Below are positions 5,272 through 50,335 of a stretch of DNA of 64,000 bases, piece by piece; position 1 is the first letter of the stretch; each line of letters starts with the position of its first letter. The position numbers were made by a program, and so were the translations under genes. Source of the stretch: a virus. A model generated the notes under the pieces. That model searched no databases. It saw only the letters and a program-made list of their open reading frames with translations, and was not told where the DNA came from. The stretch covers positions 35,181-99,180 of IMG/VR virus record IMGVR_UViG_3300048583_000034; one strand, given 5' to 3'.

Positions 5272-5293
5272 AACACTAGGTTATAATTGTGAT

Positions 5294-17506: not shown

Positions 17507-19030
17507 TTACCTTAAGAGATTCTTCAACATCTGAGAATAAGCTTCTTGGAACGGTCCAGAAAGAATCAACCCAGCAATCTCTTTCATCCTTTGCTCATCT
17601 GGATCTTCTCCAGCGTTCAACGTCTCTAGAACATATTCGTTTAGAGCGTCAGTTATTGAGCGAAAGTGTGTCTTATCCTTTTGCAAGACCGGAAACCAAG
17701 TCATAAGTTTAGCCCCATCGAAATATTGCTTTAACTTAAGTCTCGTTTCGTCTCTGGTTCCACCAATACGTTGAACCTTCTCTTCTGCTCTAGCAATCTT
17801 AGCGTTGAATTCATCAGCGTTAAAATGTGCTGGTCCTCTGGAAGCTTCGTCGCAATATCCAACAGCTTTCACAACTTCCCATGCTGGGTCGTTAATAAGA
17901 GCAGTCAGAGTCTTGATGTTAAGTTTATCCAGATTATGAATAAGCATATGCTTCTCCACAGCAAATAGAATATGTTTCTTATCTTGGGGAGAGAGTTCCG
18001 AGAACTTTAACGTCCTGAAGATCCTATCCACGATAGGAACACCTGCTCCATCATGACCGTGATAGTTCGAGAAGCCATTATCCTTACGTCCTCTCGTAGT
18101 CGCTTTACCAAAGTCATGGAAAAGAACGGCAAGGTTTATAACGGGATCAGTATATGGGGACACTTTCAAACATTCATAGATATGTCCCAGCACTTGAGCA
18201 TCACCTTCTGGATGATGTTGGGGATCATGATCGAATCCTTCCATAGCAGTAAACTCGGGAAGAATGTCGTGTAGAATGCCCGTCTCTTGTAACTTGTGTA
18301 GAAAGTTCGCCAGAGTCTTACCAGACTTCGCAGACTTATAAAACTCTTTGGAAATGCTTTCCTTGGAAATCGCCTCTGGATTAGATAACAAACTCTTTAG
18401 TTCGATAGCAGCTTGTTTGGTTCCTTCTTCAATATCGAAGCCCATCTTAGCAGCAAATCTAAAGACACGTAGAATTCTAGTGGCATCTTCCTGAAATCTC
18501 TTTTTTGGATCACCCACAGCACGCACCAGAGAGTTTTTCAAGTCCTCCAGACCACCCTGAAAGTCCACGATCTGTCCAGACGCATCCAGACCAAAGGAAT
18601 TGATCGTAAGGTCTCTACGCGCAGTGTCAGCTTCAAAGGAATCCGTCTCAGTGGAGACGTTGTTCTGTCTCCCGATGTCTCCCGAATCCGTTCTGAATTT
18701 CGCAAGGTCATACCAATAGTTTCCCCACTTAATTGTAAACACAGGTTGTAAATCATCCTTAGAGATATTTCTCATCTCATAAAGTTCTGATAACTTCTCC
18801 AGAGGAATATTGGTGGCCATATCCACATCATCAATTTCATTCCCCATAAGAAGATCTCTAGGAACCCCACCAACAATATAAATATCACCCTTTAGTTTTG
18901 ACTTGATATTCTTCATTAAATCAAGAGCAACTCTCAATTCTTCAGAAGATTCCACAGCTTTTATCCACTTGGCATCAAAGTCATCACCATACTTCTCTAG
19001 AAGCATATAGCGCAGTTTGTCGAATTTCAT
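17507..19030 (-). CDS. cca: class II tRNA nucleotidyltransferase (CCA-adding) with HD domain
   Basis: VGGVPRD..DVD, RRDLTINS, EDATRILR, HHPEG..H..HDFGK. Confidence 0.92.
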   Translation of the reverse strand: MKFDKLRYMLLEKYGDDFDAKWIKAVESSEELRVALDLMKNIKSKLKGDIYIVGGVPRDLLMGNEIDDVDMATNIPLEKLSELYEMRNISKDDLQPVFTIKWGNYWYDLAKFRTDSGDIGRQNNVSTETDSFEADTARRDLTINSFGLDASGQIVDFQGGLEDLKNSLVRAVGDPKKRFQEDATRILRVFRFAAKMGFDIEEGTKQAAIELKSLLSNPEAISKESISKEFYKSAKSGKTLANFLHKLQETGILHDILPEFTAMEGFDHDPQHHPEGDAQVLGHIYECLKVSPYTDPVINLAVLFHDFGKATTRGRKDNGFSNYHGHDGAGVPIVDRIFRTLKFSELSPQDKKHILFAVEKHMLIHNLDKLNIKTLTALINDPAWEVVKAVGYCDEASRGPAHFNADEFNAKIARAEEKVQRIGGTRDETRLKLKQYFDGAKLMTWFPVLQKDKTHFRSITDALNEYVLETLNAGEDPDEQRMKEIAGLILSGPFQEAYSQMLKNLLR

Positions 19031-22069: not shown

Positions 22070-22165
22070 ACCTCTCCCGGTGGGTGCCTCGTCACGATCC
22101 CCGCGATTACTGGCGTATAGGATTAAAGAGGAATGGGTGAACTGTCGCACCCACCGGGTCTAGGC
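22070..22165 (-). ncRNA. promoter-driven small RNA
   Basis: 12-bp stem CCCGGTGGGTGC/GCACCCACCGGG right after promoter 22176; no ATG. Confidence 0.55.
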
Positions 22166-22288
22166 TTATTCTGTCCTAGTGTTTAACTCGTTGCACTCTC
22201 TGGCCTATCCTCAGAAGCTCCAAGGATAGGCTAGAAAGCCCTTGGCCTAGCCCGTGAGAGGGGACTAGGCCAAGGGGATTTAGATCGA

Positions 22289-23401: not shown

Positions 23402-24195
23402 CTTGAAACAATTCTATCCTAGTGTTTAAATGATAAAGGCGGCTCAAGAAGTCTTTTCTTGCCCGCTGGAAACTGGTTGTATTGATATGATAAGCTCAAT
23501 CAGACTTTCAATATGTGTGCAGGGATTAAGATGCGTGCCACCTAACTCTTTATTTTGATTTAAGTGAAGATTAGTTTCTTGAATTCTTCACTTGTTTAAA
23601 CTTCTGATATTATGCAACTCGACCCGAGGGCGCATGAGATTTTATAGCTAAGTGATCTTTTGTCTTCACTTATTTAGTCTATTCTAGTGTTTAATGCGGG
23701 GAATGCCCGCGCTCACATATCACCACAACCTGTGAGCGCGGGTCTTATCACCACCTAGAAAAGTTTACCAGATAAACAAAGTTATTATATTTACAAAGTT
23801 ATGGTGAGAAAACCTTCATGAATACCTTATTCTCGTACATTATAATGAAGTGGTTACACCGCATACGTCACACCACACTTCATTAAATCTGACACTGTAT
23901 GTTTTTCCTGATACTTAAATGAAGTTGTCAAATTGAAAAAGTTATCAGGAAAACAAAGTTATATTATCAGACTCAGAATCTATACACAGTTGTCACGGGA
24001 TCACAACTATATTCCGGGGTGGCTACACCCATACGCTTACACAATCCTATCTATTAGAACTACGATCATCTATATCTTTCGATACTGCTTGCATTCACAT
24101 TCAATGACCATCTCAATTCGTTGTGCTCAGGGAAATTCTAGGCTAGTGTTTAATGAATGTATTTACAATGTAAATCTTGGTGTGATACAATGTAA

Positions 24196-37917: not shown

Positions 37918-38025
37918 TGGGACCGCTTGGATTCGAACCAAGGACCAAGGGTTTATTTTAAACTATCTCAATTTAATGCGATAGCTCCAAAGAGACCCCT
38001 GCTCTAACCACTGAGCTACAATCCC
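37918..38025 (-). tRNA. tRNA-Ile2/Met(CAT) or Lys(CTT) with 35-nt hairpin insertion in anticodon loop
   Basis: Intact acceptor, D and T arms; 42-nt anticodon loop. Confidence 0.75.
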
Positions 38026-38287: not shown

Positions 38288-38399
38288 TGGTATGCGCGGT
38301 GGGACTCGAACCCACAGATTACAGATTTTTTGGAATGGATTCTAATTAAGTATCCACTCGGAAAAAGTCTGCTGCCTATACCAATTCGGCTACGCGCAC
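38288..38399 (-). tRNA. tRNA-Leu(TAA) with 35-nt hairpin insertion in anticodon loop
   Basis: GCCGAATTGGTATAGGCAGCAGACTT[35 nt]AAAATCTG; CCA. Confidence 0.8.
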
Positions 38400-48012: not shown

Positions 48013-48513
48013 TCATCCTCTAATGAAATATGTATAACCTTCAACTTCAATATCAAAATAGTCTACCTTTGCTTCTTCAGCAGCAGCTTCCCAATCCATA
48101 CTCATGTTGTTCCATGGCCAAGAGTCCAAACCCTTCGGTTCCTCATAACAATCACCAATCAAATCTTTGATATAATCCGTAAAATATGATTCGAGAATTA
48201 ATGAGGTTCCATAAATCCAATCAGGTGCATGTTCCGCATCTCTATTAACTTCGACCAGAGTATCCAACTCATCCTTGTCGAAGGATTGATTGAATTGATC
48301 CAAAGCTTCTTGAGCTTCTTCGACTGCCATCACTAAAGGTTCATCTTCATTCTCTACAAAATCAAGATTATCCATTCGATGGGCCATAAGATCATCTTTA
48401 GCATCTTCCAAGGCAGATTCAAGAAGATCGAACTCATCTTGGAATTCTTCCAGTCTTGTTATGACATCACGCGAATCGATTATATCGTCGCCCCAATCAA
48501 AATTTGCACTCAT
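48013..48513 (-). CDS. very acidic protein, ArdA/Ocr-like antirestriction candidate
   Basis: D/E-rich; DWEAAA..DY...TYFIR C-terminus. Confidence 0.5.
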   Translation of the reverse strand: MSANFDWGDDIIDSRDVITRLEEFQDEFDLLESALEDAKDDLMAHRMDNLDFVENEDEPLVMAVEEAQEALDQFNQSFDKDELDTLVEVNRDAEHAPDWIYGTSLILESYFTDYIKDLIGDCYEEPKGLDSWPWNNMSMDWEAAAEEAKVDYFDIEVEGYTYFIRG

Positions 48514-48888
48514 GTTAATATGTTATACTAGTGTTTAATTCTTCTCCAGAAATATGAACCAATCCCAATCGATAACCAGCTTCCCATTCTTTGTAATCAT
48601 CATAGATCATATCACCATAGATAACATGTTCATTCCAGAACGTTTGCCTATCTTGATCTTCATGATTCTTTGTAACTCTACCGAACTCGAACCCTTGGAG
48701 GGATAATGACTTAGTCTTCATTGTTTGCTATTTTTAGGGCTTGTCTATTACAATCCAGAACCTTTTCCAGAATGTCTATACATTCACACAATTCGTTTCG
48801 AGCTTCTGTTATAGTAAGCTCTGATATCAACTTAACACCTTTACCGGGAATATTAACTTGATATGTTTTCCAATCTTTCTTCATAAAA

Positions 48889-49466
48889 TGGTGTCCGGGT
48901 ATACTCGTCATTATTGAGGATTAAGATTTATCTATTCTTTCCTCGCAGACGCCGAACCTTTATGAGAGATTGGATGGAATCGAACCACCGACGTTGCAAC
49001 ATCCCTAACTACCATCTTCCACATAATTGAGTTGCAACTCGCATATGTATGCATTAGGACAATCCCTTTATTTTAAATAGGTAGGTCGCCACTCCTACTT
49101 CCCTTTCTCTTGATCTTTGGGGATTACTACTGGACTAATATCAAGTGTCTTCACCACTACATAAGTATGTCTCCGCTCGCATGAGGAATACGTCCTCGCC
49201 TAAACTTAGCTTCCACACTGCTATTTAAAATAAATCTATAATGATTAAGTGAGCAGGAATTGAACCTACAACGAACGATACATAATCGTTTTCAGGAATA
49301 ACATATCACCAGTGCCGACCCCAATGTATATTACCTTTATCCCGTCCTGTATTGATATACAACCACTCTCCAATAATGGTATCACTTAAAGAAGCATGTG
49401 TTGGAGTCGAATCCAACATCTCACGGATACTATCCGCCCGTCTTAAGAATTTAAACGAACACGCTT
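48889..49466 (-). ncRNA. cluster of 4-5 tRNA-like RNAs (acceptor + T-arm retained)
   Basis: T-arms GGTGG-TTCGATT-CCATC, GTAGG-TTCAATT-CCTGC, GTTGGA-TTCGAC-TCCAAC next to terminal stems. Confidence 0.65.
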
Positions 49467-49578
49467 TGAACTGAATTGTTTCTATTATACCCGCGACAGA
49501 AACAAGGAGAATTACGCATTGTATAGCCAGCGGTTCTTGTTATGATTTCCCCCATGTGTTTTACCACATAATCCAAAG

Positions 49579-49923
49579 TTATCCCTCGCTAGGGATATTG
49601 AGTGGATCGAATCCAAGATGACCCTTGAGAGCAATCTTATCATAATCCAGATCTCGGAAATACTTGATAGCACGCTTTTCAAGACGCTCGAAAGCATCAA
49701 GCACAGCCTTCTCACGCTCAGGCACACCCGGAAGTTGATATTGTGGAGCAGTAGCACGACCGATAGCGATCTTAGTGCCGAGCTTCTTATCCCAACGATC
49801 TAGGCGAGTGTTGCATAGGGAGAATCCGTAATCAACAGTATCACCGTTTTTAATCGCTACTGCGATACCACGGGGCTGTTTGGTTTTTTCGTCTCTGATA
49901 TATGTTTTAATGATAGTTTGCAT
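49579..49923 (-). CDS. conserved phage hypothetical protein
   Basis: GFSLCN..D.WDKKLG..IA; start reassigned. Confidence 0.75.
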   Translation of the reverse strand: MQTIIKTYIRDEKTKQPRGIAVAIKNGDTVDYGFSLCNTRLDRWDKKLGTKIAIGRATAPQYQLPGVPEREKAVLDAFERLEKRAIKYFRDLDYDKIALKGHLGFDPLNIPSEG

Positions 49924-49951: not shown

Positions 49952-50335
49952 TTAAAGTGTGCCGTCGTGGAGTCTACCACCATTTACAGTCATTTCAAAT
50001 CCATGTCCATAATATCCATTGTGGACATTGAACAGATGAAGATATTTCACTCCACCATTTGATTCATTCACAAGCTTGAAGATTGCCATTGCGCCATCGT
50101 AGCAACCCGCATTGGATTCTTGGAAGAATTCGGTGTCAAATCTATATCCTTCCAAATCTTCAGCAGCTTTATCATAGCCATCGTTGCTCTTATCGGTATC
50201 ATAATGAATTTCATTATTGATGAACCAGTCAGCATGTTCACAGCACGATTGTCCCATATCGTATCCAACTAAGACATTATTTTCATCAACAAAGTTTACT
50301 TTGCTGGACCAACCTTCTCCTTGAAATACTTTCAT
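49952..50335 (-). CDS. hypothetical protein
   Basis: QSCCE...HNGYYGH. Confidence 0.75.
   Translation of the reverse strand: MKVFQGEGWSSKVNFVDENNVLVGYDMGQSCCEHADWFINNEIHYDTDKSNDGYDKAAEDLEGYRFDTEFFQESNAGCYDGAMAIFKLVNESNGGVKYLHLFNVHNGYYGHGFEMTVNGGRLHDGTL

Follow-up and report, generated by a model that had tools for sequence, protein, structure and literature searches.

A gene-free gap of 667 nucleotides (nt) on the minus strand of an uncultivated T4-like phage, which carries an rIIB homologue and at least 26 transfer RNA (tRNA) genes, contains a series of tRNA-like elements. The gap lies between genes at 49579-49923 and 48711-48884 of a 64,000-nt stretch of DNA (the window), which is part of a 99-kb virus genome (G000; IMG/VR record IMGVR_UViG_3300048583_000034) estimated to be 48% complete. 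The explanation that we favour, with slightly better than even confidence, is that the gap is a small-RNA cassette of tRNA ancestry that releases a stable, non-decoding RNA, here named unit 2. Judged from sequence comparison, unit 2 belongs to a new, well-supported structured RNA family. The original prediction for this region had described a tandem array of five tRNA-shaped RNAs, numbered here 1 to 5 from 5' to 3', that keep only the acceptor/T-arm half. This picture survives in part: tRNA-derived folds do follow each other at distances of 0-10 nt, as in a tRNA operon. However, units 3 and 5 are not tRNA tops, as the arm of unit 3 has no T loop and unit 5 has no T arm, and unit 2 is not reduced to the acceptor/T-arm half but also keeps a D arm with GG and an anticodon-arm-like hairpin.

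The unit 2 RNA family

A strict T-arm motif, defined as a 5-base-pair (bp) stem closed by G-C with the loop TTCRANN, occurs 25 times on the two strands of the 99-kb genome. Genes for tRNAs account for 22 of these occurrences and the antisense strand of a tRNA for one; the remaining two fall within the gap, at 49269 (unit 2) and 48989 (unit 4). By chance, a mean of 0.5 per genome is obtained in Markov-1 random genomes, and about 0.004 would be expected in the gap. Each of the two gap T arms directly precedes a strand that pairs with a 7-8-nt stretch located 100-140 nt upstream. In units 2 and 4 a 5-bp T stem with the 7-nt loop UUCRANY lies directly against the 3' strand of the acceptor, while the T arm of unit 1 carries a 1-nt insertion. 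The Rfam tRNA model RF00005 gives 19.6 bits for unit 2 and 19.1 bits for unit 4, against a gathering score of 29; unit 1 has no Rfam match, and ARAGORN with default settings calls no tRNA over 48800-49620. A 5-bp anticodon stem with a 7-nt loop (U33, purine 37) was found in none of units 1, 2 and 4, and comparison of the array units with the tRNAs of the phage itself revealed no paralogy beyond the T arm. Rfam searches of the array region for transfer-messenger RNA (tmRNA), Y RNA, known ribozymes, riboswitches and GOLLD/ROOL gave no match. A tmRNA was considered separately and rejected, as the tmRNA mode of ARAGORN is negative even at the 80% threshold and there is no tag frame.

Unit 2 (49238-49390, -) is a tRNA-like RNA of about 150 nt. 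As predicted, it has a terminal stem, of 8 bp (TTAAGTGA/TCACTTAA, 49389-49382 / 49252-49245), and the T arm GTAGG-TTCAATT-CCTGC (49269-49253), which is a strict match to the motif. From 5' to 3', the terminal stem is followed by a D arm with GG, the hairpin P2, the long hairpin P3, a GAAA linker and the hairpin P4, and the 3' part consists of a 4-nt linker, a 5-bp T stem with the loop UUCRANU, the 3' strand of the terminal stem and AAUC, the tail in the window being AAUCAU. The D-loop GG and the T-loop UUCRANU are present in all seven members of the family described below, and this GG is absent from units 1 and 4. P4 is also found in all seven (5-6 bp with a loop of 3-5 nt; 6 bp and 5 nt in the window copy), while the size of the P2 loop varies from about 4 nt in the window to 9 nt in the relatives L002 and L005. 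Because the D arm with its GG is kept, the D-T elbow is probably kept as well; in contrast, the RNA has no anticodon loop and is therefore unable to decode.

In four related loci (L002, L004, L005 and L011) an element of about 150 nt with the same ends starts at most about 10 nt after the homologue of A1, the gene upstream of the gap. A covariance model (R1, built with Infernal from four sequences of the unit 2 family), a check across phages that the original prediction had proposed, recovers seven distinct members. The window copy scores 126 bits and the other six between 50 and 178 bits, including those gained with R1, namely L011 (107 bits), L062/L063 (66 bits) and the complete genome G004 (50 bits). 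The homologues in L062 and G004 occupy genomic positions other than the slot next to A1. Unrelated loci, viral as well as cellular, with a total length of about 1.7 Mb gave no R1 match at E <= 0.01. Scans for a combined T-loop/acceptor/AAUCA pattern yielded two new members among 48 viral loci with the TTCGA variant, none among the 80 matches listed with the TTCAA variant, and none among the 80 loci listed from cellular genomes. Over the seven distinct sequences, in an alignment fitted to the model, 95.6% of the cells are paired and 14 of the 33 pairs are compensatory, with both sides changed. None of 500 shuffles matches this pairing, and partners slid along the sequence pair in only 35-50% of cases. 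An independent MAFFT/RNAalifold run on the family likewise gives 14 compensatory pairs. The many G-U pairs fix the transcribed strand of unit 2.

The slot across relatives and the other units

Searches of the array region by megablast and blastn against 50,697 phage records gave no match, and single-protein locus searches with either flanking gene gave no relatives. Relatives were reached through an alignment-derived query of the flanking protein A1. They are T4-like phages of about 200 kb found in aquatic metagenomes, and for two of them the genome is complete and has terminal repeats. A1 (49579-49923, -; 114 amino acids (aa) from a conserved Met, the listed open reading frame (ORF) starting at 49983) is a conserved phage protein family with 19 homologues of 58-96% identity, without a match in Pfam or PHROG, and it anchors the slot in the conserved gene order rIIB, A1, RNA slot, downstream gene. 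The content of this slot differs between relatives. L002 and L004 have a segment bounded by an inverted repeat between unit 2 and unit 5, L011 has just these two units, and L005 has only unit 2. Four tRNAs that pass the Rfam threshold, three of them with an encoded CCA, fill the slot in L012, which is the closest relative reached (A1 identity 77%); other conserved non-coding sequence occupies it in L007/L009 and L010/L020, and in L006 and L014 it is empty. The slot is thus a hotspot where tRNAs and tRNA-like RNAs swap among related phages.

Some details of these slots deserve mention in their own right. Two of the four L012 tRNAs (L012:416-893, +) are missed by ARAGORN (38.7 and 42.1 bits), and one of these appears, from its sequence, to be devoid of a D arm. 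L007 and L009, which have no unit 2 at the A1 slot, share a non-coding element, GUAAGA(R)UCUUUUUCAUGCGGAGU...CCCGUUCUUAUA, just before the next gene (L007:5585-5650 and L009:5855-5925, both +). In a further sub-lineage, A1 is followed by another kind of conserved non-coding sequence, about 190 nt long, in L010 (5350-5520), L020 (1875-2140) and L021 (3350-3610), all on the plus strand, and in L020 and L021 a unit 5 homologue comes after it.

Unit 5 (48889-48958, -) is a second conserved element with covarying stems, found in five loci (the window, L011, L002, L004 and L020). In the window, a 6-bp closing stem (48957-48952 / 48898-48893) encloses a 4-bp inner stem, with a 7-nt bulge on the 3' strand, and the 3' end reads ACC(A) (48892-48889), followed by UUUU and the ATG of the downstream gene; the 6-bp stem ending in ACCA had been correctly predicted. 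The layout common to the five loci is a 6-bp closing stem, a stacked inner stem of 3-5 bp, the 7-nt 3' bulge and ACC, after which come 5-10 pyrimidine-rich or U-rich nt and the ATG of the downstream gene family, while the interior varies in length from about 40 to 100 nt. Both the closing stems (GTTCGG/CCGGAC, GGTCGG/CCGGCC, GGGTGG/CCACCC, GGGCGG/CCGCTC) and the inner stems (CGTC/GACG, CGT/ACG, CATA/TATG, CCCA/TGGG, CGTAT/ATACG) covary, and the arrangement arises in 0.25-0.6% of shuffles per sequence. Unit 5 is a conserved leader hairpin and not a tRNA top. As both are conserved with covariation, units 2 and 5 are not merely decayed tRNAs.

Units 1 and 4 may be lineage-specific tRNA-like elements, either recently derived from tRNAs or tRNA genes in decay. 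The sequence data reached gave no homologue of unit 1, 3 or 4, and an exact 22-mer of unit 4 has no match in IMG/VR. Unit 1 (49392-49466, -; 75 nt) folds as the degenerate cloverleaf that had been proposed (z = -2.89). Its terminal stem has 8 bp, its D-like stem carries no GG, and a further stem of 5-6 bp closes a loop of 3-5 nt; none of the loops has the usual size. Its T arm, GTTGG-A-TTCGACT-CCAAC, equals the T arm of the tRNA-Met/Pro of the phage apart from one insertion and one substitution, and ARAGORN reports unit 1 as tRNA-Thr(AGT) solely at the -ps80 threshold or in mitochondrial mode. Unit 4 (48965-49066, -; 102 nt; z = -1.5) contains both predicted features, the 7-bp acceptor stem GGGATTG/CAATCTC (49066-49060 / 48972-48966) and the canonical T arm GGTGG-TTCGATT-CCATC (48989-48973). 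In addition, it has a D-position hairpin without GG and an 8-bp palindromic stem (GTTGCAAC/GTTGCAAC) that closes a 30-nt loop. Complementarity also links the 3' acceptor strand of unit 4 and its linker (CCAAUCUCUCAUAAA, 48959-48974) with the start codon and the codons next to it in the downstream gene (UUUAUGAAGAAAGAUUGG, 48869-48887, -), and such pairing would bracket unit 5; because about one match of this kind is estimated to occur by chance in the region, it is not used as evidence.

Unit 3 (49067-49234, -; 168 nt) is doubtful and may be just an AT-rich inverted repeat. The predicted 14-bp terminal stem is there, as a perfect AT-only inverted repeat, but the loop of the GTAGG..CCTAC arm (AGTGGCGA, 8 nt) does not qualify as a T loop, and the interior folds no better than shuffles (z = -0.8). 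The equally placed segment in L002 and L004 is bounded by TTTAAGTAT/ATACTTAAA, and its interior is unrelated to that of unit 3 and has a z of about 0.

Proposed explanation, rivals and known counterparts

In the proposed pathway, the cassette sits on the minus strand inside an early-type operon (rIIB ... A1, cassette, downstream gene), and its transcript would arise by read-through from the rIIB side or would start at a weak -10-like sequence, GGGTATAAT. The core would be unit 2, in which an acceptor-type stem stacked on the T arm and a D arm with GG would be able to form the elbow and three hairpins would replace the decoding anticodon arm, with units 1 and 4 as elements that no longer have a usable anticodon loop. 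The acceptor/T-arm stack is the feature by which RNase P and CCA-adding enzymes recognise their substrates. The host RNase P would cleave units 1, 2 and 4, and possibly unit 5, at the 5' edge, and the 3' sides would be cut or trimmed by RNase E/Z or exonucleases. A CCA-type enzyme of the host or of the phage would then add CCA, a step that is proposed because units 1, 2 and 4 encode no CCA. A phage CCA enzyme had been suggested by the original prediction, and a PolyA_pol domain (PF01743) of a CCA-adding-type nucleotidyltransferase is indeed found at 18521-18883 (-; G000:53701-54063; 85.8 bits, E = 2.3e-25) in a 516-aa open frame of the same phage, whose product would be a candidate 3'-end maturation enzyme for the array. 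As a result, unit 2 would accumulate as a stable tRNA-shaped RNA and the 5' end of the downstream messenger RNA (mRNA) would lie at the unit 5 hairpin or immediately behind it.

Concerning function, the likeliest class for unit 2 is that of a tRNA mimic that would bind a tRNA-recognising factor, and the tRNA-like units may serve as decoys, as stability handles or as substrates for CCA maturation, as had been suggested; a literature search for phage tRNA-like decoy RNAs returned nothing relevant. A more far-reaching possibility, which we consider clearly unlikely, is that unit 2 represents a new class of tRNA mimic with an intact elbow, CCA-tailed and perhaps aminoacylated, that does not decode and acts in trans as the counterpart of the T4 RNA rnaC. 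If true, its target might be a defence nuclease or toxin that attacks tRNA, an enzyme of processing or modification, or the ribosome, and as a functional counterpart of rnaC it would offer a comparative handle on a 50-year-old puzzle.

Several points weigh against the cassette explanation. The processing of the units by RNase P, their stability and the addition of CCA are steps that we infer. The alignment behind the unit 2 pair counts is biased toward the structure of the model to which it was fitted. Part of the array may be evolutionary debris, because units 1 and 4 are without detectable homologues and unit 3 shows no significant structure. The flanking genes are directly adjacent in L006 and L014, which makes the cassette dispensable. 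Support for a promoter of its own is weak, as there is a -10-like TATAAT without a -35 and without the promoter-like box seen elsewhere in the phage. Finally, the analogy with T4 described below is architectural only, because no homology is detected in either direction.

The chief rival explanation sees the elements as cis-acting punctuation or leader structures and not as sources of trans-acting RNAs: the folds would serve to divide the polycistronic mRNA and to govern the 5' end, the stability or the translation of the downstream gene. Unit 5 would then be the structured 5' leader of the 57-aa downstream gene, comparable to the t-elements of plant mitochondria, tRNA-like processing signals next to mRNA ends that provide a documented precedent (PMC1920247). 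We hold this to be unlikely, though appreciable; it is compatible with the cassette explanation and fits unit 5 better than unit 2. Unit 5 always ends 5-10 nt before an ATG of the same gene family, whatever lies upstream (5 loci), there is no visible Shine-Dalgarno sequence before the ATG of the downstream gene (48884), and unit 2 homologues also end 5 nt (L062) or about 20 nt (L005) before an ATG. Cassette-free relatives have abutting flanking genes, as if these were translationally coupled, and the complementarity of the unit 4 3' strand and linker to the downstream start would suit this role, with about one such match expected by chance. However, P2, P3, P4 and the D arm of unit 2 covary and would be needless in a mere cleavage signal, L062 and G004 carry unit 2 elsewhere in their genomes, and L010 has the downstream gene without unit 5. 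It is quite improbable that the stretch is instead the functionless wreck of a secondary tRNA cluster, a reading in favour of which stand the four tRNA genes of the same slot in L012 and its emptiness in L006 and L014. Units 1 and 4 look the part, as they fail default ARAGORN and the Rfam gathering score, have neither the D-loop GG nor a 7-nt anticodon loop and gave no homologues in the searches made (nor did unit 3), and the T arm of unit 1 resembles a normal one with a 1-nt insertion. Nevertheless, the stems of unit 1 (8 bp) and unit 4 (7, 8 and 5 bp) are still perfect, which is unexpected under neutrality. For units 2 and 5 decay is refuted, since they are conserved with compensatory changes although the flanking protein is only 55-69% identical. 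The original prediction had taken a lack of conserved homologues as the mark of decayed tRNAs. The covarying homologues of units 2 and 5 contradict this for these two, and units 1 and 4 may well be decaying tRNAs.

That the extra hairpins are introns or inserts, removed to yield functional decoding tRNAs, appears very improbable, even though this phage does carry interrupted tRNAs. Two tRNAs at 37918-38025 and 38291-38399 of the window (-; 56 and 53 bits) have anticodon-loop hairpin inserts of about 35 nt, and the pair is kept, inserts included, in the relative G002 (L208:1400-1640, -), so that the inserts are not an assembly artefact; the 30-nt loop of unit 4, closed by a stem in the anticodon position, could be likened to them. 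The extra RNA of unit 2, however, occupies the positions of the anticodon arm and the variable region rather than forming a single anticodon-loop insert, P2 and P4 both have no 7-nt loop, the D arm of unit 4 has no GG and its loop edges do not provide a U33-NNN-R37 context, and the intron mode of ARAGORN at default stringency finds no tRNA in the array. A split tRNA is likewise rejected, since there is no 7-nt loop. Apart from the array, this mode reads one of the two insert-bearing tRNAs as Lys(CTT) with a 35-nt intron. Least probable of all, and hardly credible on the available comparisons, is that the units mimic tRNA in the manner of the Y RNAs YrlA and Yrn1, with a Ro60/Rsr protein as their partner. 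Some phages do have Y RNAs, which are established mimics of tRNA, and tandem tRNAs are known to give false YrlA matches (PMC4201824). Two relatives show hints of them, a sub-threshold YrlA match 2 kb downstream in L002 (7360-7490, +; 34.6 bits against a gathering score of 69), which could be false and due to tandem tRNA-like elements, and the permuted order T arm, hairpin, D arm in L009 (5600-5700, +). Yet the region 48400-49900 has no match to YrlA (RF02553) even at E <= 10, and units 1, 2 and 4 have the normal, unpermuted tRNA order. No TROVE/Ro60 domain (PF05731) was found in G000 and four relatives, two of them complete, in searches whose positive controls responded, a host Rsr remaining conceivable.

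Known phage RNAs provide the closest parallel. Phage tRNA clusters are now read mainly as devices for codon supply or anti-defence, and to our knowledge no explanation has been given for the tRNA-shaped but non-decoding RNAs that accompany them. Among these are rnaC and rnaD of T4, which have been known since the 1970s. They come directly after tRNA-Arg, on the distal side of the tRNA cluster, and no role has been assigned to them (PMC3014915; PMC9697503). T4 species 1 RNA (rnaC) is a non-coding RNA of about 140 nt, back to back with tRNA-type genes, and the consensus fold of five T-even relatives consists of an interrupted terminal stem, a long hairpin, a 10-bp hairpin and a T arm. It shares with unit 2 the terminal stem, the long hairpin and the second hairpin, a T arm (CCGGG-UUCGAAU-CCCGG) that abuts the 3' strand of the terminal stem, a sub-threshold position in the Rfam tRNA clan, as found for units 2 and 4, and an unencoded CCA. 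In contrast to unit 2, rnaC has no D arm and no P2 and its terminal stem is broken by a 2x2 internal loop, while unit 2 is located in an rIIB-linked operon and not at the main tRNA cluster. Applied to T4 with filters off, R1 reaches 11.3 bits (E = 0.14), no better than on ordinary tRNAs; conversely, a model of rnaC (R2, five homologues) does not exceed 10 bits for any member of the unit 2 family and gives 8.7 bits for unit 4. A sequence common to T4 rnaC and the P3 apex of three members, GGAACGUU, was rejected as a link because it is not conserved within the rnaC family. Unit 2 thus appears to resemble an rnaC-type RNA without being filed as a member of that family, and the precedent of a stable RNA with a tRNA-type T arm supports reading it as a tRNA-derived non-decoding RNA.

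Other tRNA-like RNAs resemble the units less closely. With canonical or class II tRNAs (RF00005) the array units share an acceptor-type stem, a D arm with GG (in unit 2), a UUCRANU T arm and the normal order of these parts, but they score only 19-20 bits and have neither a 7-nt anticodon loop nor an encoded CCA, and unit 2 has an 8-bp terminal stem and about 75 extra nt in two further hairpins. Known hairpin substrates of RNase P, as the 4.5S RNA precursor and the phi80 M3 RNA, present a stem followed by RCC. Unit 5 resembles these substrates and t-elements in having a stem and ACC just before an ATG, where it may be cleaved by analogy, and differs from them in its conserved 7-nt bulge and inner stem. 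The Y RNAs YrlA and Yrn1 are likewise non-coding tRNA mimics with T and D arms. The YrlA of M. smegmatis is cleaved by RNase P and receives CCA (PMC4201824); unlike the array units, which keep the normal order, YrlA is circularly permuted, and it is encoded next to Ro60. Unit 2 would be a second, independently evolved family of non-decoding RNAs that follows the same logic as rnaD-rnaC. The fact that the acceptor stack, the T loop and the D-loop GG are kept while the anticodon loop is discarded points to recognition by the machinery that matures or binds tRNAs and not by the decoding centre. The family provides a structural model and the Infernal model R1, and unit 5 adds a second conserved element.

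Genomic setting of the gap

The 667-nt gap contains no ORF of at least 45 aa under table 11 or with TAG read as Q, and with TGA read as W there are just frames of 46-111 aa, each of which requires 1-3 read-through codons. A protein-coding gap by TAG or TGA recoding was rejected on the basis of these scans under three genetic codes. Outside the window, the main tRNA cluster begins with a tRNA (G000:C1:31513-31584, +) to which ARAGORN assigns the amber-reading anticodon CTA and the label 'Pyl', and the phage may therefore suppress or recode TAG. The downstream gene (48711-48884, -) encodes a 57-aa protein beginning MKKDWKTYQ.... Its start is placed at 48884, because homologues begin with MNKKDW or MNRNDW, and not at the ATG at 48911, which sits within unit 5 and whose equivalent is out of frame or stopped in L011 and L002.

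Upstream of the array, about 18 nt before unit 1, an 8-bp inverted repeat (TTGTTTCT/AGAAACAA) surrounds GGGTATAATAGAA (49476-49505, -) and contains a -10-like TATAAT at 49484-49489 (GGGTATAAT at 49484-49492). This element is a possible weak promoter; the region has no good -35, and the phage-specific box AAACACTAG is absent. A sequence similar to the element before unit 1, GGGAATATAATAGAA, is located about 100 nt before the unit 2 homologue of L062. The box, (A/T)TAAACACTAG, has the look of a promoter specific to this phage and is not present before the array. It recurs 3 nt upstream of a TAnAAT-like hexamer at 22130-22176, 23640-23684 and 24100-24144 of the window (-), and is additionally present at 5280 (+) and 61648 (-).

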